NCBI GenBank assembly: GCA_977017645.1
Contig: OZ360222.1
Span: 208,320,001 to 208,384,000 of the forward strand
Length of the DNA: 64,000 nucleotides
Source of the DNA: Torpedo marmorata
Taxonomy: Eukaryota
Direction: 5' to 3'
Position 1 is the first letter of the stretch. Each line of letters begins with the position of its first letter. The notes under the pieces were generated by a model that was given only the letters and a program-made list of their open reading frames with translations, had not been told where the DNA came from and made no database searches. Of this stretch, positions 2,839 to 62,809 are shown in pieces. A program made the translations under genes and the position numbers.

Positions 2839-3085
2839 TAAAAGGTAAAAGTTCCATTATTGTCACGCAATACTACATTTAGAATGTAACATACATGAAA
2901 TTCTTTCATTTTTGTCTACTGTAAGGCAGACAAAGAGTCGCTTCTTTGTCCAGGGCCCCTCTCAGAAACCTACAGCACCTGGTGTTCCTTGGCAGTCTCC
3001 CCTCCAAGTACTGACCAGTCCTGTGCCTGCTTAGCTTCGGAGATCAGACAATCCCAGTCATATTCAGGCTATTGGTGCTGTTAGG
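2839..3085 (-). mobile_element. 5S rRNA-derived SINE (5S head 2966..3085, LINE-like tail 2839..2965)
   Basis: The reverse complement of 2966..3085 aligns by eye to vertebrate 5S rRNA (TCTGATCTCCGAAGCTAAGCAGG...AGTACTTGGAGGGGAGACTGCC...CAGGTGCTGTAGGTTT). It is followed by a tail ending GTGACAATAATGGAACTTTTACCTTTT that is homologous to 50020-50074/51185-51258. Confidence 0.8.
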
Positions 3086-3739: not shown

Positions 3740-4690
3740 GCACAAAATGCTGGAGGAACTCAACGGGCCAGGCAGCATCCTGGAAGGTAATAGACAGTCG
3801 AAGTTTCAATAGAACATAGAAATCTACAGCACATTACAGGCACTTCGACCCACAATGTTGTACTGACCTAATAACCTACTTTCAACAACTGCCTAGACTT
3901 TCCTGACTGCATACGCTTCAATTTTTCTCAGCTCCGTGTACCTATCTAATAGGCTCTTAAAAGATCCCTTTGTACCTGCCTCTACCGCTGTTACTGGCAG
4001 CACATCCCATGCACCCATCACTCTCTGTATGAAAAACACCTCTTACATCCCCCTGTACTTTCTCCCAAGCACCTTAAAACTATGCCCCCTGGTGTCAGCC
4101 ATTTCAGCCCTGGGAAAAAGCCTCTGCCCAGTTATACATCAATGCCTCTCAACATCTTATACACCTCTATCAGGTCACCCCTCCATCCTCTGTCGCTGCA
4201 AGGAGAAAAGATCAAGTTCACTCAACCTGTCCTAATAAGGCATGCTCTCCAATCCAAGTAGTGTCCCAGTAAATCTTCTCTGTACCCTCTTTATAGCAAC
4301 AGGCCAAAACCCTTCATTAGGAGTAGCAAGGCAGAACCCAGAATAAAAGGAAGGGTGATGGGAGGAGGAAGAGTACGAGCTGGTAAGTGATAGGTGAATA
4401 CAGGTTGGGAGGGGGTGTGAAGCTGGATGGGGAGGGGCAGAAGAGATGGTGAAAAGGTAAGGAGCTTAGAGGTGATGAGAGGAAGCAGCAGGGGATTGGG
4501 GAAGATGCAATCTGATAGGAGAGGACAGTAGATCATAGAATGAAGTTGGGGCACTAGAGGAAGGAAGGTGTGGGTGACAGGTGGGTGGGGGAGGGAAAAG
4601 AAAAGGAGGAATGGAGCCAGAGCAACCATGAAAAGCAAGGGAGCTGGATAGAAAACAACGATCAAGAGGCTGGCTCAACCTTAGTGTTTT
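3740..4690 (-). mobile_element. Penelope-like pLTR/3' region, split by a CR1 insertion
   Basis: ACAAAATGCTGGAGGAACTCAACGGGCCAGGCAGCATC...GTTTC at 3742-3808 resumes at about 4300 (GGCCAAAACCCTTCATTAGG) and runs into a purine-rich tract, as in the copy at 7070-7834. Confidence 0.6.
3809..4291 (-). mobile_element. CR1 LINE 3' fragment
   Basis: Starts with the ATAGAACATAGA tail complement. The body is antisense to the CR1 C-terminus (CCTTAAAACTATGCCCCCT...TCTATCAGGTCACCCCTC...AATCTTCTCTGTACCCT). Confidence 0.85.
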
Positions 4691-6764: not shown

Positions 6765-7069
6765 GAGTTGCAGTACACAGAAACAGGCTCTTTGGCCCAT
6801 CATATATCCCTGCCAACTATCAAATATCTATCCATAATAATTCCGTTAACTGTCATTTTGTCCGCAGCCTTCCAAGCCTTGGCAATTCAATTGCTTGCCT
6901 AGATACTTCTCAAATGTTTTGAGAATACCTGCCTCCATCACCCACGCTGGCAGTGTGTTCCAGATTCTAACCACTCTTGAGGTGAAAAGGTTCTTCCTCA
7001 AATCCTCTCTAAACCTCTCACCCCTTATCCTAAACTCATGCCCTCTAGTATTACATACCTCTGCTGACA
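6765..7069 (-). mobile_element. CR1 LINE 3' fragment
   Basis: ORF 6846..7079: NTRGHEFRIRGERFREDLRKNLFTSRVVRIWNTLP. Confidence 0.88.
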
Positions 7070-7834
7070 GTAAAAACACAAAGCTGGAGAAACTCAGCAG
7101 GACAAGCAGGGTCCTTTATATAGCAAAGGTAAAAATACATAACCGACGTTTCGGGCTAGAGCCCTTCATCTAGGTATGGAAAAATGTCGGCAGGCATCCG
7201 AACAAAAGAGTAAGGGGGGAGGTGTGGTCACAAAGGCTGGAAGTGATAGGTGGAGAAGGGAGGGAGGGGACAGCAGCGATCAAAGGGAGGAGGGATGGCT
7301 AGGTGAATAGAGAGAGAAGGGAGGGAGGAGAACTGGAAAGGGAAGGGGGGGAGGGGGAAGAGGAGAGCAGGTTAGCAGAAACCGGAAAAGTCTATGTTAA
7401 TGCCAACTGTCTGGAAAGTGCCCAGACGGAAAATCAGTTGTTGTTCCTCCAATTTGTGGGTGGTCTTGGTGGGACAGTACATAAGGCCATAGACAGACAG
7501 GTGAGTATGGGAGTGTGACACAGAACTGAAATGGTTGGCTACTGGGAGGTCTCTGTCACTGTAGTGGACGGAGCGAAGGTGCTCAGCGAAGCGATCTCCC
7601 AATCTGCGCCCAGTCTCTCCGATGAAGAGAAAGCCACAAAGGGAGCACCAGATGCAGTAAATCAGTCCTGCGGATACACAAGTGAAGTGTTGCTTCACTT
7701 GAAAGGCCTGTTAGGGGCCCCGGACCATGGTGAGGGAGGAGGTGTGGGCGCAAGTGTGGCACCTCCTGCGGTCACAGGGGAAGGTGCCGGGGGGGTGGAT
7801 TGGTGGGGAGGGATGAGTGCACGTGTTTTACTTT
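7070..7834 (-). mobile_element. Penelope-like element, 5'-truncated: GIY-YIG endonuclease ORF (7372..7698) plus pLTR with hammerhead-like motif
   Basis: GLIYCIWCSLCGFLFIGETGRRLGDRFAEH...VANHF...EQQLIFRLGT..GINIDF is the PLE GIY-YIG domain. 14-bp TSD TACCTCTGCTGACA at 7056-7069 and 7835-7848. Hammerhead-like motif at 7141-7177 (minus strand). Confidence 0.92.
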
Positions 7835-7924
7835 TACCTCTGCTGACATCTACCTTTTCGATGACTCTGGTCCATCTGAGCGTTGTGTTTGAGGTGTCTT
7901 GGTATGATATTTAGTGAGTGTCAG

Positions 7925-8280
7925 TGTTGTAGCGCGTCGCTACGGTTATAGCTTTGCGCGTCGAGTTGGTCGTCGCTCTAGTTCTGGAGCTCAAGAGGGA
8001 GATACACACCCTCTGAGCGTCAAGACAGAACTGCCTATTCTGCCGTCGGCTCTGCCTTTTAAAGGCAGGGCCGAGCCTGACTGCTGCGTCACTGATGGGG
8101 CGTGGCGCGACGCCCAGGATTGGTCGGGCCACGATCCATCCTTAGGGATTGGCCCGTTCCCTCCTTGCCGTTGTGGCCTATGGGAACGGGCCGTCCAAAT
8201 CACGTGCCGCCTGCGCGTTCGTCGTGTTCGACCACGGCTCCCTGAGTCGGCCTGCGGAGTAGGTCGCGGGCTGCTACAGT
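7925..8280 (-). promoter_or_regulatory. CpG-rich promoter-like island
   Basis: Dense CpG in a CpG-depleted window. Motifs: CACGTG 8201-8206, two CCAAT boxes (ATTGG 8148-8152 and 8119-8123), GC box GGGGCGTGGC 8097-8106, CRE-like TGCGTCA 8085-8091, TTTTAAA 8057-8063. The order suits minus-strand initiation near 8030. Confidence 0.55.
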
Positions 8281-16239: not shown

Positions 16240-16900
16240 CTCTATGACACATCACACACTATTAATTGTAATACTCACTGATGTACCCATAACCTTCACT
16301 GTAGCACTCCTAGAAATACCTTCATTCCTCCCTGTAGCAATTCCAATTGTATCCTTCACACCCCTCTAACTTTCTCTGATTACTTGTAACTTTCTTTGTA
16401 AACGTCTCTGAAATATTCATAACTCATGCTGTGACCCTCTGATGTACCCATGTCCTTCACTGAAGCCCTCTCTATAAACCTCACAATATACCTTTCGCTG
16501 TATCACTCTGAATTACCATCAGTGCTCATGGTAATTCACTGAGATGCAGCACATCTACTTCACTGTAACTGGTACCAATAAGATGAAGGGCTCAAGCCCG
16601 AAACGTCGGTTATGTATTTCTACCTTTGCTACATAAAAGACACTGTTTGACCTGCTGAGTTTCTCCAGCTTTTGTGTTTTTTACCAATAAGCCCTACATT
16701 GGCTACTTTAAAAATATTTGAGATAATTCACTTTTTTCTTGGTATATTCCACCTTACAGATACACTTCATGTAACACTATTGTATACCTCACCTTTCTCA
16801 CTGTTAAAGTTATTGATTTATTCCACGTGCTTTAGTGTAACACTCTCTGATGTGCCCCATTCAGTCTATGACCTTCTGATAATCCCTACCTCTCTGCAAG
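16240..16900. repeat. Ancient degenerate minisatellite, unit about 32 bp
   Basis: Recurring CCTTCACTGTAACACTCTCTGATGTACCCAT-like units, e.g. near 16275, 16435 and 16835. Confidence 0.55.
16583..16681 (+). mobile_element. About 100-bp Penelope-derived mini-element starting in the hammerhead-like core
   Basis: 10-bp TSD TACCAATAAG (16573-16582, 16682-16691). Sequence (G)ATGAAGGGCTCAAGCCCGAAACGTCGGTT...TGACCTGCTGAGTTTCTCCAGCTTTTGTGTTTT. Confidence 0.85.
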
Positions 16901-17324
16901 TCTCTGTTATACCCATTAGACTCAATGATTTAAGGACACAATAGGCCCAGGAAGGAAGCAAATGATGTCCCATAAATTCAGTTTTTGAAAATGTTTTATT
17001 TTATTACAGCTTCACGTTAAATCTGCTACCTCCCCTTCACTAATGAGCTGCCAGACTTGAATACAATGACAAATGACATCTCTTTGAGTTACTTTTCTCT
17101 CTACCCTCTGCCCTCTCAGGGAACACTATTCTCCTTTGCAAGCTCTTCATCTGGGAAAATCCAGCCCAGATCATTAGTTGAGAGAGTTTCACCTAAACCC
17201 ACAATGTAGTAGCAGCTGTGCATTGTACATTACTTTTGGAGGTGAAATACCAGGCACGCCTATCATTGTATAGCAAGTGACATGACAAAATCCAGCCAGA
17301 GATAAACATTGATTTTCAAATCTA

Positions 17325-17880
17325 ACTCTTAGCTATACAAGACCTTAGTTAGACCCCACTTGGAATACTGTGTTCAGTTCTGGTCACATCACTACAAGAA
17401 GGATGTGGATGCTATGGAAAGGGTGTAGAGGAGATTTAAAAGGATGCTGTCTGGATTGGAGAGCATGTCTTATGAGGATAGGTTAAGTGAACTTGGTCTT
17501 TTCTTCTTGTAGCGATGGAGGATGAGGGGTGACCTGCTAGAGGAAGTTTTAATTAAGATGATGACAAGCATTGACCATGTGGATGGCCAGAGGCTTTTTT
17601 TCCCAGGGCTGAAAATGCCCCGAGGGGGCATAGTTTGTAAGAGGTAAATTTTTCACACAGAGAGTGGCGGGTGCATGGAACGCGCTGCCAGCAATGGTGG
17701 TGGAGGCAGGTACAGTAGGATCTTTTAAGAGACTATTAGATAGGTAGGTGGAACTGAGAACAATGGAGGGTTATGCAGCAGGGATAGTCTATCTGGGCAA
17801 TTGTTGGAGTAGGTTATTAGGTCGAAAAAACATTGTGGGCCAAAGGCCTGTACTGTGCTGCAGATTTATATGTTATTTTC
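17325..17880 (+). mobile_element. CR1 LINE 3' fragment
   Basis: CTATACAAGACCTTAGTTAGACCCCACTTGGAATACTGTGTTCAGTTCTGGTCA encodes [18 protein letters not shown]; also TTTTCACACAGAGAGTGG. Confidence 0.88.
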
Positions 17881-18667
17881 ACTTGTAAACAATGGTAATC
17901 AGTTCCTTCCTAAAGTGGTAATTGGAGTTATGCTTGTGATATGGGCTGTAGGATTCCTGGCATTCAGCCCCTGGAGTCTCCAGCACTGTCAAGTGTGAAC
18001 AGTCTTCCCAACCTCATTTGGAGGCTATTGCCATATTGCTCACACCAGATGAGGGAATTGGAAATTGACCCTAAAGTGTGCAGATGCCGGAAAGTTTTTG
18101 TGTCAGTATAGGTCTTGCAAAGCTGGAGTAATCAACCGTAGACAATCCCATCCTGATCAGCTGTGGCGAGGAAGGGAGGCATGGTGTATGGCTGACGGTA
18201 TTCACAGAAAAGGCTGAGAGTTTTCTCTTTTTTTTCTCAGTGGTTTTGTGCAATCCCATTTTGATTTCACAAGGCATTGTTTTCTTAGTTACTGATGAAT
18301 CACATTGCAGTGCGCTGCTCTCTGACGCACTCCCATCCAGGGGCCCTGTGATTACAAGAGCTTCAGATATGTTATACTGGGAGACAAAAAGGAAAAGGCG
18401 TTGAGTCTGAGTGTGAATTTGAATTTGTTATCGTTAAAAATCAGTTTCAGACATCTGGACACTTGCCCAAATTGTGGTTAAAAGGAATAGTTTTTCTAAG
18501 GCTACAAGTAAACCATGCAGAAATTGCTGCTTTTGCTGGAGCATCTTTTGTGAAGTTTTAATTTTCAGCAGTTTCAAAGAAATGCAATGAAAGATGGGAA
18601 ATAAATTTAACTTAATTCACCCATTGGTGATACTGATGAGATTGGTTTGAATTTCAATTTTACTAAT

Positions 18668-18897
18668 GGAGATACAACAGACTGCAGATATTGGAATCTG
18701 GAACAAAAACAAACTGCTGGAAGAACTCAAGGGGTCAAGCAGCATCTGTGGAGGCAAAGGGATAGTCGATATTTCAGGTCGATACACATGGTCTGATGCA
18801 TGGTAATGACCTGAAATTTTGAATATCTCTTTGCCTCCATGGTTGCGGCTTGACCTGCTAAGTTCCACCAGCAGTTTGTAGTCCGCTCCAATTCCAC
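18668..18897. mobile_element. Fold-back element made of two inverted Penelope pLTR arms
   Basis: CAAACTGCTGGAAGAACTCAAGGGGTCAAGC...ATTTCAGGTC pairs with GACCTGAAAT...GCTTGACCTGCTAAGTTCCACCAGCAGTTTG. Confidence 0.75.
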
Positions 18898-18948
18898 TAA
18901 TTTTACTTTCCATTTTAAATTGTTACAACAGGGCAAAAAAAAAAGTGA

Positions 18949-19045
18949 AAAACACAAAAGCTGGAGAACTCAGCAGGTCAAACAGTGTCTTTTATGTAGC
19001 AAAGGTAGAAATACATAACCGACGTTTCAGGCTTGAGCCCTTCAT
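18949..19045 (-). mobile_element. About 100-bp Penelope-derived mini-element, copy 2
   Basis: 15-bp TSD CAAAAAAAAAAGTGA (18934-18948, 19046-19060). The reverse complement differs from 16583-16681 by about one substitution and one indel. Confidence 0.85.
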
Positions 19046-22000
19046 CAAAAAAAAAAGTGAGGTCAGTGAACTTCCACCAATACTTTGGTCAAAAGTTATG
19101 TCACAGGTTGGGAGTCATCCAGGACACAGCCTCTGACCACTTGACCTTCTGGCCAGCTGCAGCATTAATCAGAGGATCAATCTAACCAATACTGAAACGT
19201 CAGGGATTGTAACACCTAGTCCTATATATCAGCCCTTCCAGGAACGTTTGAAATGTAAATTCTATGTGGCTAACCTGAGGCAAAAGCCTCTGAAAGTCAC
19301 TTTTCCCCTTAGATATAGTACTATTCAGTTCATATTTAACACAGATTGATTTTCCCCTTTTAACATTGTAAAATATTTCCACTTAAGGTTAATGGGCTAC
19401 TGCAACTTCCCCCAGGTGAGCAGTAGAACCTGGAACAAGTTGATGGAAATGTGGGCAGAATAAAATAAGATGAGTGTAAGTGGGTGCATTATCACATGTT
19501 CCATTAATCCATCTATAACAGAGTATACATTACAGATATATATCAATTTTTTTCTTTACAATTTAGTATTATAAAAAGAACCAAGCCACAAAAAAATATA
19601 TAGTAATTTTATCATAATAATTTTTTTAATAAAAGCTAAAGCAATCTAAACTAGTCTACCACCTACCCCACCCCAGAATTGCCCTGACCTACAGAAATAA
19701 TATAACTTCAAATCATGAGGAATCATAAACTCTGATAAGCTGATTCTTTCTTAAGCCAAATAGCTTCTGAAGTGCTGAAACAAAAAGAGAATAGCAGTGG
19801 CATTTACAATAACATTTTCTTCAGTGTTGAATAATGCGTGCTACTTAGTTATAGTGTGCTATGCTTGTGCATGAGTTAGACTCGTGAACCTTCTCCCTCT
19901 CTGCCAAACCATGCATCTTTGTCACAATTGTATTGCCTGCTTCACTTTAAGCCAAGCTTCTTCGCTGGCAACGCTGCTTTCTCAAAATTTGGCAGCTTGT
20001 TAGATACTTGCAACAGAGGTTCAGGCACACTTTGACCCAGACAGAGTTTAACCTGTGGCGACCTTTCCATCTTATAGAAGGCTGTTAAGAGATCAGGGGT
20101 AGAATGTTGGTGCCGGAAACCCTGTAATTTTTTTGCCGTCTAGCATTGTTTGGCCTCACAACAAATTTTTGATTAATGTTCCTGTGCACAGCTGATTTGT
20201 TTTATTCTGTCACCTTAACCCCTCTGAAGAGTAACTGACATTTACACAGACATGCAGCACAATGGGGCAACAGCAGTAACCAGTGGGAATGGTCAGTTTA
20301 TTGCAACACCTGAGGATTCATGGTAAAAAGAAGCGGTTTTGTAATTCCACAGTCTCGCCCTGTTATCACCTCACTGAGTAGCTCTAATGCCCAGTCTTGA
20401 TTTTGACAGCAGTTTGAATCGATATTGGCTGTGGGTGGGAAGCAGATAGAGGAAGGGGAAGAGCACAATCAGGTACTGTGCAAGCATGGGCTCACCATGG
20501 AAAGGGAGGGAAGAACCAATGGAGAAAGTTGTGGGTAGGAGAGAACCCAACATGATTAAACTACATTCAAGTAGAAGATGGAGAGTATTGCTACAGAAGT
20601 AATAAAAGGCTCCTTATATCCAACAGTACAAGCAATAATAGTCTTGCTTTTGAGATGGGCACAGAGCAAAAACTCAGCAATCAAAGTTCAGTGCATGAGT
20701 TACATCAACCACTGATTTAAATTCTCATAGAATAGGATCATTAACACTCCACAGATTGGGATCGTGTTACACTAGTCTTCAGACAGAATTGGCTGAGCTG
20801 CTGGAATCTACTCCTCTTGTGTTTGGCAGATGGTGTTGTTGCTTGTTAAATGGTTATTCAGCCGGGAAAGAGTTACTGAATAAATGCTTGAAGTTTCTCT
20901 TGATTTGGCTGGGTGACAATTATTTGTGGTGGAACTGTGGAGTATCTGTTTATACTGTAGGATAAGAGTTATCCAGCTTGTTCATTGCAGAGTGTGTGAA
21001 GAAGTGTGTTGAAGGATGCATGTGCATGGTGTGCCTCTGTAAAACTTACAAATCTCCAACAAAATTAGTAAACGAGAGACTCAGTACTTACAACTGCTGT
21101 AAATAATGCGAGGCTCTGGGGCTGCGAGGGTTGTTTAGACGTAACCAAATGTTCTGGTGATACTTTTATCTGGAGGAGCAAATGAGAATGAAACAAAAAT
21201 TGCAAATGAAGTTTGCCGAGCCAGTGGGCCTGGTTCTATTGCTTCTGGTAACTGTTCTGTGCTCATTAGATATGAAGTATCTTCATCCAGCTCCTTTGGG
21301 AATTTAGCCTTCATTTCATTAGGTGTCAAATTCCCAACGGATTCTCTGTTAGTCCCATGATTTACTGTATTGCCCTTGGCTAGAGAGTGCTGCAGATGCT
21401 TAAATGTGATGAAATCTTACTGGGAGTTGGGCTATTCCCTAATTTATTGGGAAGAACTCAAGTTTTTGACAAAAATCAAATGTTTTCTCCATTGAGTGAG
21501 AAAAGGTTATAATTTAAAAGTGAGGAGCGTTAATGATGCTAGTTTATTGCATGCAGTTGGCTCGTTTGAAAGTACCTTTTTACGAGCATTTTGGTCAGCA
21601 ATCTCACGCTGTTACTTATTGCTCAAGTAGCAATGTGAGGCACTGCCGTTGTTTGAATTATTATGCCTTGGGTGCCTCCTGGATAAAAGCACTGCTTGCA
21701 TAAGGTGCTCAAATGCAATAAACAGAACTGTCCTGCATGGCTTGCAAAATCAAGAAATCAGGCAGAGAGCCTTATGATGGGATCCTCATACTGCTTGTCA
21801 TGTTGCAGTTTTTAAGTGGTTTATCGAAGTATTATAATTTATACTAATGTAAGTAAAATGAGTGTGAGTGGAAACCTCATTTGATCTCAGCTGATAATAC
21901 TGAAATGGTCAATGAGGATTAAACCTTTTGAGGCCAATAGACGTACTTTAAGGGCGGACTGGCTGATGTGATCCATGGCTTCTTCATGCAGTGGATTACT

Positions 22001-23545: not shown

Positions 23546-23721
23546 TCTCTTACTTGCATCATGTTCAGTCAAGTTTTGAAGTTTGTCCATTGCTATTATT
23601 ATGGACAAGTCAAGAGCAGCTCAGGTGTTTTATTTCCTTCCATCTGATGATTTCAGCTCACCCACAACATCCAGAATCCTCCTCACATTTGTCCCTAGTT
23701 TCTGTCAGGACATCCAAGCAT

Positions 23722-24165
23722 GTGAAACATGAAAGTCTGCAGACCCTGTGATTGGAGTAAAAACACAAAATTGCTGGAGGAACTCAGCAGGTCTTGCAGC
23801 GTCCATGAGAGGTATAGATGTATAACCAATGTTTCGGGCCTGAGCCCTTCTTCAAGGTATGAGCAAAAAGTAAGCAGGCGCCTGAATAAAAAGGCCGAGG
23901 GAGGAGGGAAGAAAGGGTAGGGGAAGGAACACAGCCCAACAGCCAAAAGGTGATAATTGTATATGGCTCGTAGGACTGGAGAGGAAAGGTGGGAAATGAT
24001 TGAGGGAGGGGATGGCTTTGTGAATGCCGAGGGAAAGAGAGAGAGACAGAGCTAGAAGAAAGGAGATAGGGACAGAGAGACGGGGGGGGGGGGGGCGGGG
24101 GGCGGTGGGGGGAAGATGGAGACTGGAGAAATCAATGTTAATGACACCTGGAAGCTGGTTTGAGA
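23722..24165 (-). mobile_element. Penelope-like 3' end/pLTR
   Basis: GTINID-like end of the GIY-YIG ORF (PGVINIDFSS in ORF 23852..24217). Motif GTTTCGGGCCTGAGCCCTTCTTCAAGG at about 23831-23857. Confidence 0.8.
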
Positions 24166-24414
24166 CCTGACGTATTTTCTTGTGGTGGGACTTGTGCTGG
24201 TGAAAGCCCAACTTCAAAAGCTAACTCCAGATTACTACACTTCTATTTATGTCATCAGAACATGTCCTAATTTTACTCCAAGCTCTAATTTTAACAGCAC
24301 CATTTTGTTCTGGATTTCCATCCTGAAGAAACAGTATGCAACCGAACAAAACCACTTCTCATTTTAAACTGCTCAGTTAGAGAGCCCATAAATTTTCTTA
24401 GCTTAATGGAATAC

Positions 24415-24635
24415 AATGACTGTTTCCGGCTTGGGCCCTTCGTCAGGCATAAGCATAAACAGGCAAGTGCCTGAATAAAAAGGTGAGGGGAAGGGGGAAG
24501 GAGGAGAGTAGGGAGTGCTCCTGACTTTTTTTGCTTATACCTGACGAAGGGCTCAGGCATGAAAGGATGGTTACCCTTTGCTTCCTATGGATGGTACGTA
24601 GCCTGCTGAGTTTCTCCAGCATGTTTGTGTATTAC
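24415..24635. mobile_element. Inverted pair of Penelope pLTR segments, each with a CTGACGA hammerhead-like core
   Basis: GGGCCCTTCGTCAGGCATAAGCA (24434-24456) is the inverse of TGCTTATACCTGACGAAGGGCTC (24532-24554). Confidence 0.7.
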
Positions 24636-26908: not shown

Positions 26909-29433
26909 AAAAACACAATGCTGGAGAAGCTCAGCAGGTCAAACAGTGTACGTCATATACACTTTTTCATTTTGTTCGGGCGCCTGCTCACATTTTGCTC
27001 ATACCTTTTTTTTTTCTTTTTTTTTTTTATAATTTTATTTAACTTTTAAAATCACAAAATACATAAATCAAAAATAGTATATCATTCAAAATACATGTGA
27101 TATATTACCTCCCCCCCTCCCACCCTCCCCTCCCCAACCCTCCCACACTATTCTAATAAAAAAAAGGAAAGAGAAAAAAAAAAGAGGTATTAGTTAAAAA
27201 GAAGAAAAAAAAAGAATAGAATTGAATATTAAAGATTTAAGAGTTAGAATGAGGAGAAAACAATTACAAGCTAACTCTACTTATATATTGGAGGTTACAT
27301 TTGTCAGCGGTACCAACTTTTAGAGAATTAATTCATACCCATAATTCTCATATATGGGCTCCAAATTTTCAAAAAGAAATGATATTTATCTCGTAAATTA
27401 TATGTAATTTTTTCCAATGGTATACAAGAACGTAATTCTGCATGTAGTCTATCTAAATTCAAATCTAAATCTGATTTCCAAGTAATAGCAATACATTTTT
27501 TTGAAATCGCTAACACAATTCGTAAAAATTCTATTTGATACATATTCAATCTATTTCTAATACTAATTTTTTTAATATCTCCAAATAAAAATACCATAGG
27601 ATCCATTGGAATCGTAATATTAAAAATTCTATCTAAAAAATCCTTAACTTTAGACCAAAAATTTTGAATTTTTAAACATGACCATGTACAGTGTACAAAA
27701 GAACCTATTTCATCTTTACACCTAAAACACATATCTGATAATGCCGGATTAAATTTCTTTAATTTTTTAGGTGTTATATATAATTGATGAAAAAAATTAT
27801 ATTGTACTAATCTATATCTAACATTAATAATTTTAGTCATACTCAATTTACATAATTCTTTCCAATGTTGTTCATCTATACTAATATTTAAATCTGACTC
27901 CCAATTTAATCTAGATTTATGTAATCCTACTTTAGGCATCTTTCTCTGAAGTAGTTTATACATTTGTGATATAAATTTATTAAAATTTCCATTAGTAATT
28001 AGTAACTCTAATCCATCTTGTCTAGGAGATATTAATTGATTCCCCAATTTCTCAACTAAAAATCCTTTAACCTGATAATAAGCCAAAATCGTATTATCCA
28101 TTATTCCAAATTTTTCTTTCAACCTAGAAAAAGTAACAAATCTTCCCACCTCAAAGCAATCTTTGATCTTCTTAATTCCTTTTTGATACCATAATTTTAA
28201 AAATTGGTTATCAATAGAAAAAGGTAACAATAAATTCTGATATAATGGCATATTTAAAGATATTGATCCTTTTCGTCCTATCTCATTATCTATCTGAGTC
28301 CAAATTTCCAATAAATGTTTAATAATCGGTGATTTTTTCTTTTTAATTAATAATAATTTAGAATTCCATTTATAAATAATATCTTCCTTATATCTTTCCC
28401 CTATATTACTCAATTCTATATTAATCCAAGCAGTATTTTTAGTTGTCAAAAAATTCATTAATAAATTTTAATTGTGCTGCCTTATAGTAATATTGAAAAT
28501 TGGGAAGCTGTAATCCACCCATTTCGTATTCCCAAGTTAATTTATCTATACTTACCCTTGCTAATTTTCCTTTCCATAAAAACTTTCTAACAATGATTTT
28601 TAAATCTTTGAAAAATTTTTGAGGAATACCAAAAGGTATAGATTGAAAAAGATATTGAACTCTTGGAAAAATATTCATTTTAATACAATTCACTCTTCCC
28701 ATTAGAGTTATAGGTAAATCTTTCCAATTTTCCAAATCTTTCTTTATTTTCTGAAATAAAGGTATATAATTTAATTTATATAAATTTTCCAATTTTGTAT
28801 CTACTTTAACTCCCAAATATTTAATTGCTTCTTTAGCCCATTTAAATTTTGTAACTTCTTTACATTTAGTATAGTCTCCTTGAGATAAAGCCATTATCTC
28901 ACTCTTATCCGAGTTTATTTTATATCCAGATATCTCACCATACTCCCTCAATATCTTATCTAATTGTTGAAGCGATTCAATAGATTTCGTCATATATATT
29001 AATACATCATCTGCAAACAAACTAATTTTATGTTCTTCTGTACCTACTTTAATCCCATTTATATTAGTATCTTTCCTAATCATTTCAGCCAACGGTTCTA
29101 TTGCCAATACAAACAAAGCAGGTGACAAAGGACATCCTTGTCTTGTTGATCGTGTCAAGGAAAATTTAGATGATATTTGACCATTTGTAATTACTCTAGC
29201 TGTAGGTTCCTTATATATAGTCTTAATCCAATTTATAAAAATATTTCCAAATCCATATTTCTCTAAAACCTTAATTTTTTTGCTCATACCTTGATGAAGG
29301 GTTCAAGCCTGAAACGTTGGTTATGTATCTTTATCTTTACTATATAAAGTACACTGTTTGACCTGCTGAGTTTCCCCAGCATTGTGTTTTTGCTTCAATC
29401 ACGGGGTCTGCAGACTTTCGGTTTTACTTTATG
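26909..29433 (+). mobile_element. Short Penelope pLTR insertion (inverted 5' piece plus forward pLTR) hosting an L1
   Basis: Outer TSD TTACTCGTAGC (26898-26908, 29434-29444). 26909-26950 is the inverse of about 29349-29392. Hammerhead-like TTGATGAAGGGTTCAAGCCTGAAACGTTGGTT at 29291-29322. Confidence 0.8.
27008..29277 (-). mobile_element. 5'-truncated L1-clade LINE (ORF2 RT C-half and Cys-rich domain, one frameshift near 28450)
   Basis: TRQGCPLSPALF...ISLFADDVLIY...IKYLGV in 28439..29287 and CFRCKDEIGSFVHCTWSC in 27328..28458. Poly(A) and AATAAA at the left end. 15-bp TSD TTTTGCTCATACCTT (26993-27007, 29278-29292). Confidence 0.95.
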
Positions 29434-29610: not shown

Positions 29611-30469
29611 CCGTATATACATGTGTAGTAGTCGATACCGTGTAAAAGTCAATCCCCTATTTTTGGCCCTGGCTGCCCGCCCATCCGAGCTCCCGACGCC
29701 CCTATCGCCCACCCATCCAAGTTCCTGATGCCCCGACCGTCCACCCATCCAAGTTCCTGATGCCCCGACCGTCCACCCATCCAAGTTCCTGATGCCCCGA
29801 CCGTCCACCCATCCAAGTTCCTGATGCCCCGACCGTCCACCCATCCGAGTTCCCGATGCCCCGACCGTCCACCCATCCAAGTTCCCGATGCCCCGACCGT
29901 CCACCCATCTGAGTTCCTGATGCCCCGACCGTCCACCCATCCAAGTTCCTGATGCCCCAACCGTCCACCCATCCAAGTTCCCGATGCCCCGACCGTCCAC
30001 CCATCCAAGTTCCCGATGCCCCGACCGTCCACCCATCCAAGTTCCCGATGCCCCGACCGTCCACCCATCCAAGTTCCCGATGCCCCGACCGTCCACCCAT
30101 CCAAGTTCCCGATGCCCCGACCGTCCACCCATCCGAGTTCCCGATGCCCCGACCGTCCACCCATCCAAGTTCCCGATGCCCCGACCGTCCACCCATCCAA
30201 GCTCCTGACGCCCCGACAGTGGACTCTTGCCTAGGCCCCGGCCGCCCGCCCATTCAAGCTCCCGAAGCCCCAGCTTCCCACCCATCCAAACTCCCGACGC
30301 CCCGACCGCAGACTCTCACCCCGGCCACCTGCCCATCCATGCACCCGACGCCCCAAACGACGCAAGTACCTACTGCGGTCAATAGTAGTATGCATGTAAT
30401 AGTCAACCCCCCTAAACTTTACCCTAAAAATTGGTCCACAAAATTAGACTATTACACGCATATAGACGG
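29611..30469. mobile_element. Non-autonomous Tc1/mariner (pogo/Tigger-like) element carrying a minisatellite
   Basis: TIRs CCGTATATACATGTGTAGTAGTC / GACTATTACACGCATATAGACGG, with a TA TSD at 29609-29610 and 30470-30471. Confidence 0.88.
29675..30360. repeat. 32-bp minisatellite (about 16 homogeneous units plus degenerate flanking units)
   Basis: Unit CCGTCCACCCATCCAAGTTCC(C/T)GATGCCCCGA runs head-to-tail over about 29706-30215 and decays outward. Confidence 0.95.
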
Positions 30470-39507: not shown

Positions 39508-39682
39508 TAGAATACAAACTGTTGGAGGAACTCAGCAGGTCAGGCAGCATCTGTGGAGGGCAGAGGATGATTAAAATTGCAGGATGAGACATCAGGACTG
39601 CCTGAGCTGCAGAATTCCTCCAGATGCCTGTTTTTTTTTTATTTGTGGCAGATTACAGCATCTGCAGTCTCTTGTGTCTCTG
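39508..39682. mobile_element. Fold-back Penelope pLTR derivative
   Basis: TGGAGGAACTCAGCAGGTCAGGCAG pairs with CTGCCTGAGCTGCAGAATTCCTCCA; ends CAGCATCTGCAGTCTCTTGTGTCTC. Confidence 0.7.
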
Positions 39683-43954: not shown

Positions 43955-44047
43955 ATGCACAAAAGTGCTGGAGAAATCCAGCAGGTCATGCAACATCTCT
44001 TGGAATTAAAGGGTAACCAAAGTTTCGGGGATGAATCTTTCATCAAG
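43955..44047 (-). mobile_element. Diverged Penelope-derived mini-element (about 95 bp)
   Basis: CACAAAAGTGCTGGAGAAATCCAGCAGGTCA...GTTTCGGGGATGAATCTTTCATCAAG has the same extent as 18949-19045. Confidence 0.65.
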
Positions 44048-44361
44048 TAACTTTCTTGTTTAACCGCAATATTGAATTGACTGCTGTTCAGCATCTGGGG
44101 AGGTTGGCCTGGAAAGGAATATTGTAGCTCAATTTCATAGTCAAAAGTCAATAATCTGTGGTCTGTATTCAGCCTAACCACGCCATGCCTAACCAAACCA
44201 AGCCTAACCAAATTGGGCCAAAGGGAACAATAGGTCCTAATCTGGATCTAATTAATCCAGGCCCATTCAGATTGGGCCCAAACAAATATGGAGTGGGCCA
44301 GCCACACCAGAAAAGGCAGGTGAAAATAAATCTAAGCAAGGCGGACCCATGCAGGGGTGGC

Positions 44362-51258: not shown

Positions 51259-51899
51259 TGCAGAGGAGGCCACTCTGAGCTGAAAGCTTCAGTCTTTTGG
51301 TCTAAATTAAAGATATTGGAGGTGATTGAAATGCTGTTTGGCCCACTGATGCTTTTTAATGGTTGTGGTTCGTGCTTGTCCCAACCTTTTATGGGAATGG
51401 TCAACGAGAACTTTGAATTGAGGTTATTTATTCTATTCCCCAGATTACCCATGGCTGGGTAAAATGATCACGGTTCTACAGACTCTGTTTTACCTGATAA
51501 TAACAGACTGTTTCCATATCACCCCATTCCAAATTCCCTTTAAGACATTGGATTTGAAGGCATCTTGAAATTAAAAACAGGCGATGCTGGAAATACTTGG
51601 AAGGTCAGGCAACATCTATGGAGACAGAATGAATGTATCAGCTCATTGACCTATCGTTGAACTGGGAAAAGTTAGAAACGAAAGAGGTTTACAGTTGCAG
51701 ATAAAAATGGGAGAGTCAGAAATACCAAAAACAATGGGAGACCTGCGGAGAGTGAGTGTCACGAACAGTGCTGGCTGAAAAAGGGTGAAAAGAGTAGAAG
51801 ATATCAAAAGATGCATATGGGAGGGGCTCTAAATAATTGTGCATGAATCTGAAATTTGAGCCATTGAATTTCAGCTGAGATTCATGTGGAATAAATTAG

Positions 51900-62462: not shown

Positions 62463-62809
62463 ACAAAACAACAGCCCAGTGACCAGGTGAGTAGTCTGGT
62501 TAGTTGTGACATTAATAGAGTGGTAAGTTATGAAATTGGATGACTAGTAATCTGTGTGGTACCAGTCAGAGAATTAAACTAGACGCACCTGTTGGGTTGG
62601 GGACTGCTGACCCTGGAATCTGGAGTAAAACACAATCTGCTGGAGGAACTCAGTGGGAGAAAGAGAATGGTCAATGTTTCAGGGTGGCATCCTCATCAAA
62701 TCCTTACTTCCAGTTGGAAGCTGGTGGACTGACAGAAAGGCTTACTGATCACTGACTCGGCTTGTTGACAAAACTGACCCTTTGCTCTGCTGCTGGGAGT
62801 TTGATTTAT

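Follow-up and report, generated by a model that had tools for sequence, protein, structure and literature searches.

The window analyzed here, a 64-kb stretch of Torpedo marmorata DNA (GenBank assembly GCA_977017645.1, contig OZ360222.1, positions 208,320,001 to 208,384,000 of the forward strand), contains two short inserts, A and B (Table 1), which are almost certainly tail-less end-pieces, or solo pseudo-long terminal repeats (pLTRs), of an endonuclease-bearing Penelope-like retrotransposon. Both begin within the core of a hammerhead ribozyme motif, relative to which positions are numbered throughout, with A6 as +1 (16583 in insert A) and G5 as 0. Insert A is enclosed by an exact 10-bp target-site duplication (TACCAATAAG at 16573-16582 and 16682-16691) and insert B by an exact 15-bp one (19046-19060 and 18934-18948). 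The inserts themselves are 98% identical, differing by one substitution and one gap over 99 alignment columns, while their 300-bp flanks show no match to each other better than E 0.25 and are thus unrelated. This bears out the proposal of a first-pass annotation of this DNA that A and B are two separate, nearly identical insertions with common boundaries. That annotation had also set their start at GATGA; the common start holds, but the G itself belongs to the target duplication in both inserts, being the final base of each, and relative to the parental CCTTG the microhomology amounts to 1 nt in A and 3 nt in B. Two older copies, at 43955-44047 and ~62602-62699, indeed end near the same point as had been noted, with starts 2-3 nt upstream of that of A and B. 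To these we add longer copies sharing this end (7169, 23852, 29294, 55096 and others) and five fold-back pairs.

Table 1. Inserts A and B, their target sites and related Penelope-like copies (positions in the window; starts relative to hammerhead A6 = +1).
Feature	Position	Strand	Length	Remarks
Insert A	16583..16681	+	99 bp	Almost certainly a tail-less 3' end (solo pLTR) of a Penelope-like element; starts at hammerhead A6 (+1)
Left target-site duplication of A	16573..16582	+	10 bp	Final G is hammerhead G5 (1-nt microhomology)
Right target-site duplication of A	16682..16691	+
Target across right junction of A	16690..16699	+		9/10 bases complementary to first 10 bases of insert
Hammerhead remnant of A	16583..16614	+		A6-U7-G8-A9, extra A, stem II GGGC/GCCC (16588-16599), GAAA, CG, UC, 3' strand of helix I; without 5' strand of helix I, U3 and U4
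Insert B	18949..19045	-	97 bp	98% identical to A; common start and end
5'-side duplication copy of B	19046..19060	-	15 bp	Ends TTG (3-nt microhomology with parental core)
3'-side duplication copy of B and next bases	18930..18948	-		Duplication copy (18934-18948) plus next CCCT, complementary to stem II in the register seen in A
Copy C	7070..7834	-	765 bp	5'-truncated longer relative; CX4CX2C linker, GIY-YIG-like frame (7375-7710), full helix I, tail-less 3' end as in A and B
Locus G	18664..18906			Older fold-back pair adjoining insert B; arm starts ~-7 and ~+11
Copy E1	23720..24150	-		Long tailed relative; full core, ~39-nt tail
Locus F	25503..25751			Fold-back pair of second family; arm starts ~-9 and ~-11; 13-bp duplication, one mismatch
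Locus D	26909..29430			Fold-back pair, same family as A and B; tail-less minus arm from ~+50, tailed plus arm from ~-60; 14-bp duplication, one mismatch; split by L1/Tx1-like insertion
Locus I	43955..44066	-		Older copy from ~-3, preceded by inverted tail piece (13/15 match to tail of E1); 12-bp duplication, one mismatch
Locus J	62602..62699	-		Older tailed copy from ~-2; no duplication found

The parentage of the inserts is revealed by copy C, the last 99 bp of which are 92% identical to A and which lies between 14-bp duplications (7835-7848 and 7056-7069), with a short inverted tail piece at its 5' end that matches the tail of locus D at 10/10 positions. GIY-YIG-like and Cys/His residues are visible in its reading frame, which matches the Pfam GIY-YIG model at E 0.006 (17.2 bits, under the curated cut-off of 22.6); six of the seven window frames scanned against Pfam gave no match. 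A protein search with this nuclease recovered 22 longer homologues at E<=1e-10 among 57 candidates, the five best being 53-66% identical and four of these being named ray or shark proteins. One of the 22 (904 aa, 46%) combines a reverse transcriptase (RT) with GIY-YIG, and in the homologues P0001, P0003 and P0014 RT motifs lie upstream of the nuclease; copy C itself is truncated before the RT. The GIY-YIG-like frame upstream of an identical 3' end supports the Penelope-like origin proposed earlier. The CX4CX2C motif immediately upstream of the nuclease of copy C has the form of the Neptune-type linker between RT and nuclease, defined as CX2-5CxxC (PMC8557442; published systems are cited here and below from the parts of each paper drawn on, which in this case also give Nematis a similar motif). 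The parent element is accordingly likely to be of Neptune type, judging by this linker; no RT of the family was found in the 64-kb window. In the gene model of P0003, a named shark protein, the RT and GIY-YIG frame runs on into residues resembling a translated pLTR hammerhead, which suggests a like end structure in that shark species.

Inserts A and B, copies C and L and the minus arm of D all end at TGTGTTTTT, whereas the plus arm of D and E1 continue for ~39 nt as a tail. The picture is thus one of a pLTR with an optional tail (D, E1), inverted 5' arms (five fold-back loci) and duplications of 10-15 bp at seven loci, two further loci (C and I) showing a short inverted tail piece at the 5' end. 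Matches to Rfam microRNA families at loci F and G fall below the gathering score and reflect the fold-backs. The common 3' boundary fits the published internal priming site of an anole Penelope-like element (PMC11167929), so that no new mechanism is needed for it. A separate old fold-back arm (24413-24516, minus) stops on its 3' side at ~+25 to +32, which is at the predicted ribozyme cut or slightly beyond it; this one case could be a deletion, or a copy whose synthesis was primed on the end of a cleaved RNA.

In the hammerhead motif of these copies, helix I pairs the bases directly before the core with those directly after GUC, and the cut is predicted between +25 and +26 (between 16607 and 16608 in A). 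Across eight copies from two families this model leaves 86% of all cells and 83% of helix I cells paired, with paired changes on both sides in seven cells, a number reached by 2/500 shuffles; as the eight copies are few and related, this is support rather than proof. A GUU model, corresponding to the cleavage site originally suggested, pairs only 25% of helix I cells. Hence, of the minimal type I hammerhead that had been proposed, helices I and II around the core and a cut after NUH stand, but the GUU triplet and the canonical C3 core do not. Position 3 is a U opposite G8 in 9/11 copies other than A and B, the parental core reads mostly UUGAUGA, and the majority letter at 7171 in contigs of public sequencing runs (below) restores TTG. 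In most copies the parental motif therefore has neither C3-G8 nor U3-A8, named as the working core pair (PMC3088659), and although a natural U3-G8 core with an added insertion is mentioned (PMC7151607), its self-cleavage activity is uncertain. The covariance-model check proposed earlier returned no Rfam hammerhead match at the gathering score in the whole window, nor at E<=10 in 6900-30000. The inserts alone are incomplete hammerheads, without the 5' strand of helix I, and with U3 and U4 absent in A and supplied by the flank in B. Without that strand A and B should not cleave as monomers, as had been anticipated.

We curated 21 arms in 16 loci, leaving out two false junctions and a weak match at 51562-51690. 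One of the false junctions, an apparent inversion at the core (27007), is actually the duplication of the L1/Tx1-like insertion (26993-29291) that splits locus D, its 15-bp duplication ending at CCTT immediately before the core. The other, an apparent start at +18 (3807), lies where a CR1-like fragment (3808-4300, minus) splits the Penelope copy K at ~+17, within the ribozyme. Seven of the 21 arms start between -12 and +1: inserts A and B, loci I and J, the two arms of F and the plus arm of G. An eighth joins them when the start of the degraded minus arm of H is taken from its 11-nt match to the core. These arms stem from at least two sequence families, and seven other arms reach 130-800 nt upstream of the site. 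Measured against an exponential null the clustering has P 4e-5, and for the 14 short arms the scan-corrected value is 0.006, falling to 0.0007 once H is included. Starts at the cut site itself (+22 to +28) were seen in none of the 21 arms, or in one if the minus arm of H is read at +28. The 5' endpoint is thus non-random, as first suspected: the hammerhead core is quite probably a real 5' hot zone, and likely one common to several families rather than the fixed edge of one. Neither an open reading frame nor splicing offers itself as the origin of +1: a new frame from the ATG at +1 meets a stop after 17 codons, and no AG precedes +1 except as a private change in copy C, an AG ~33 nt upstream of +1 in three older copies reading GG in C and D. 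Three junctions fall at ~+48 to +52 (26909-26959, minus; 39592-39680, plus; and a contig joint at 7122-7170), which is possibly a second, weaker hot zone.

Contigs from four public sequencing runs (X1-X4) were also compared with copy C; they represent three coded organisms, X2 and X3 being one sample, share at most 35% of query words and perhaps belong to other species. Loose contig ends pile up at 7068-7071, the 3' end, in 4/4 runs, and their consensus is the tail. Among the 15 joints listed of 466, all three that are not deletions have one side at 7167-7170 (+3 to 0); two are inversions and one, in run X2, is a head-to-tail step of 97 nt, each on one contig. In the listed runs the letter of A and B is the majority one at 7102, 7106, 7110 and 7158, so most differences between A and C are private to C. 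Depth across 7169/7170 falls 3.8-fold in X1, 6.7-fold in X2 and 2.4-fold in X3 and rises slightly in X4; we do not use this as evidence because contig depth is not copy number and because the reference has private changes there. Overall the contig support for a 5' hot zone is mixed. Pattern scans for the element found no loci in metagenome contigs, viral contigs or prokaryote genomes.

Several observations count against a hot zone at the core. With the copies that prompted the analysis (A, B, I and J) set aside, the excess shrinks to 3/17 (P 0.047) or 4/17 (P 0.008), and under a short-mean exponential null with looser junction calls (9/21 in a 20-nt window) the scan P is 0.24. Arms belonging to a single fold-back do not count independently, and the length of old copies may be underestimated. 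Finally, no pile of loose ends appears at 7165-7175 among the 24 rows listed of 2718, in a region where private changes of the reference at 7158 and 7171 lower sensitivity.

Based on these observations we propose, as the rather more probable account, that the inserts are solo pLTRs generated by target-primed reverse transcription that starts at an internal site and stops close to where the template RNA begins, a short way upstream of an uncleaved core. That an RNA start near helix I is itself the cause of the hot zone we consider to have slightly less than an even chance. An initiator-like motif, judged by what we take to be its consensus, lies at -7 in all four family-1 copies that keep the region and at -6 in one of two family-2 copies. 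The element nuclease would nick both target strands 10-15 nt apart. By analogy with the anole Poseidon element, the nicked strand would prime at the tail-less site, which lies 74 nt downstream from the predicted cut. Priming at this site within the 5' pLTR would yield a cDNA of only ~100-110 nt, because the RNA would begin near helix I. Through a short match, the other target strand would then be joined to the end of the cDNA, with a loss of up to ~10 nt; A and B would both have taken +1, probably via a GCCCT match to stem II at both targets. Priming of the other strand on the RNA as well would produce fold-back pairs or inverted tail pieces; these structures fit priming on both strands, as seen in vitro for the anole protein (PMC11167929), and the inverted pLTR pattern reported in PMC3846280. 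As to points against an RNA start near helix I, the initiator-like motif is weak, since 1.2% of positions have it and it doubles as a strand of helix I. Moreover, the 75-nt intron of Drosophila Penelope begins 46 nt past the transcription start (PMC2377424) and ends at helix I (PMC4209133), which places that start ~120 nt upstream of the ribozyme and speaks against a general rule. The RNA start of the present element is one that we infer, and the anole element to which it is compared belongs to Poseidon, not Neptune.

An alternative that we regard as unlikely, yet as deserving serious weight, is a structural pause or template switch, in which the fold of the uncleaved ribozyme stalls the polymerase at the core, or the cDNA end snaps back there, on a template extending further upstream. 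When the insert is folded together with the G before it, the predicted structure is a hairpin whose first pair, G5-C17, falls exactly at the boundary. With the U3 core, CCUU-GAUG-AAGG is also predicted to be able to form a small hairpin around the junction (as in copy D), and the contig inversion joints hit position 0 twice. However, the folds are no more stable than those of shuffled sequences (z -0.36 to -1.55), and in seven copies the sequence continues 130-800 nt beyond the site. Travelling along the template from 3' to 5', a polymerase meets the 3' base of a hairpin first, here ~+25, rather than its 5' base, and at most one of the 21 arms starts near there.

Less plausible still, and in our judgment improbable, is the existence of a discrete non-autonomous mini-element, either SINE-like (short interspersed nuclear element) or a monomer of a retrozyme, mobilized in trans and arising from a 100-nt source gene of its own. 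A and B share, besides their ends, three bases that differ from copy C, one X2 contig steps back 97 nt head-to-tail from the 3' end to ~+3, and non-autonomous pLTR derivatives have been published (bioRxiv 10.64898/2026.07.22.740005; MRC1 in PMC8557442). Yet the inserts hold nothing that is absent from long copies, being collinear with their 3' end, and most of the differences between A and C are, as seen above, private to C. The starts vary over ~12 nt and between at least two families and include fold-back arms, so the discrete mini-family suggested in the first-pass annotation finds no support. Retrozymes are recognized by at least two tandem units with complete hammerheads; none of the 19 tandem repeats recorded in the window consists of this unit, which is without a complete ribozyme, and the sole head-to-tail contig joint (X2, among the 15 joints listed of 466) starts inside the core. 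Nor do the inserts resemble SINEs, as they align end to end with the last 99 nt of the parent and show no tRNA, 5S or 7SL match over their length.

The common base at which A and B begin raises a further issue. Past the duplication both empty sites run on as G/CCCT (the slash marking the end of the duplication), which is the complement of AGGGC of the element in one and the same register; complementarity to the start of the insert extends to 9/10 bases at A and 5 bases at B. Among 20,000 random sites 0.35% reach the score of A in any register on that strand and 0.6% on either strand, and 0.4% reach the score of B in the register of A, in what is a post hoc test on two sites (n=2). The motif itself occurs at 0.07% of positions, and the junctions of C, D, F, G and I, the remaining five duplicated loci, do not have it. 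This match may explain why only A and B begin at the identical base. A stronger version, which we hold to be a long shot, is that the uncleaved hammerhead serves as a 5' landmark in transposition, the cDNA ending at the core and stem II pairing with the target past the second nick, thereby setting the start of the second strand. If true, this would give a ribozyme a non-catalytic, target-capturing role that produces a whole class of 100-bp inserts. Our literature search, with subscription papers outside its scope, found no description of target pairing with stem II. Alternatively, G/CCCT could be what the nuclease of a young subfamily prefers, and the common start the by-product of one burst or of local homogenization of inverted copies 2.3 kb apart. 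Both sites have this infrequent motif, and the copies are close together and 98% alike. Nevertheless, the five other duplicated loci without the motif disfavor a plain nuclease preference, which also does not account for the motif complementing the first bases of the insert itself in one register, and conversion does not create duplications; we accordingly give this reading little credence. The match in A and B thus stands as a striking coincidence of two cases. Last, that the inserts are copies of the ribozyme cleavage product is hardly credible: the hammerhead fold persists across families with paired changes, but a cleaved template would begin at +26, which is contradicted in A and B by the 25 nt they include upstream of the cut, at most one of the 21 arms starts near that point, and the anole element inserts in vitro without need for cleavage and with no reads from the cut in the parts of PMC11167929 drawn on here.

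The reading of A and B as solo pLTRs, formed by internally primed reverse transcription that ends near the RNA start, places them among well-described structures. Earlier accounts cover truncated copies, tails, dispersed minimal hammerheads and both solo and inverted pLTRs (PMC3846280, PMC8557442, PMC4209133, PMC8969392). Endonuclease-bearing Penelope-like elements share with the present copies a C-terminal GIY-YIG, heavy 5' truncation, an adjacent inverted arm, an optional 30-40-nt tail at one end and microhomology at the 5' joint, with duplications of similar length, 8-10 bp in Adineta and 10-15 bp here (PMC3846280; PMC8557442). In contrast, the Adineta solo pLTRs described in those accounts are without duplication or enclose captured DNA, whereas here the duplication is clean and the 5' junctions cluster at the core. 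The anole Poseidon element PAc (PMC11167929) similarly has two internal starts of reverse transcription bracketing the tail, one of them downstream of the hammerhead cut by 85-92 nt (obtained by subtraction) as against 74 nt here, and it extends both target strands in vitro, matching the fold-backs seen here. It differs in belonging to another clade, in preferring ATT sites and in starting inside a stem-loop that is AC-rich, while the end in the present element is UG-rich and its linker of Neptune type; no 5' junction peak at the core is reported in the parts of that paper drawn on.

The hammerhead likewise agrees with the minimal type I motifs of metazoan Penelope-like elements as presented in PMC4209133 in its short helix I, an extra base between 9 and 10.1, G10.1-C11.1, the lack of loop 3 and palindromic 15.2-16.2; these too are mostly single dispersed motifs, with some opposite-strand pairs. 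The points of departure are U3 opposite G8 in the 9/11 other copies and inserts in which helix I has no 5' strand. Non-LTR retrozymes (PMC7229834; bioRxiv 10.64898/2026.07.22.740005) are comparable in being short, non-coding, pLTR-related dispersed monomers with a type I hammerhead; unlike the inserts, which are single, incomplete and collinear with the end of the parent, they comprise tandem units each with a whole ribozyme and give rise to circular RNAs, according to the portions of those accounts compared.

The remainder of the window is vertebrate DNA that, from the look of its translations, we take to be rich in CR1-, L2/Rex- and L1/Tx1-like fragments. A 5S rRNA match at 2967-3085 (minus; 40.3 bits, gathering score 38) is a pseudogene or the head of a 5S-derived SINE. 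A GC-rich segment with TGT...ACA ends, at ~7910-8280 (minus) and adjoining copy C, resembles a solo LTR, and a 32-bp minisatellite of 16.8 copies with 95% matches occupies 29680-30217.

The inserts thus belong to a known class of element, with a junction bias that is possibly unreported: our literature search found no description of 5' junctions clustering at the core, subscription papers and the supplementary figures of PMC11167929 (Fig. S2, genomic copy coverage) being outside its scope. Stubs of this kind may be mis-annotated as SINEs or as microRNA hairpins. If neither the junction peak nor the target match holds, these are ordinary truncated copies, useful mainly as presence/absence markers. 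The role of the hammerhead in Penelope-like elements, and the making of the 5' junction and the second strand, are open questions according to PMC8557442 and PMC11167929, within the parts drawn on. A junction peak at the core rather than at the cut site, in a lineage with a very abundant family, would make both questions testable from an assembly alone; a pairing step would be indicated if hundreds of copies bore out the target match to stem II.

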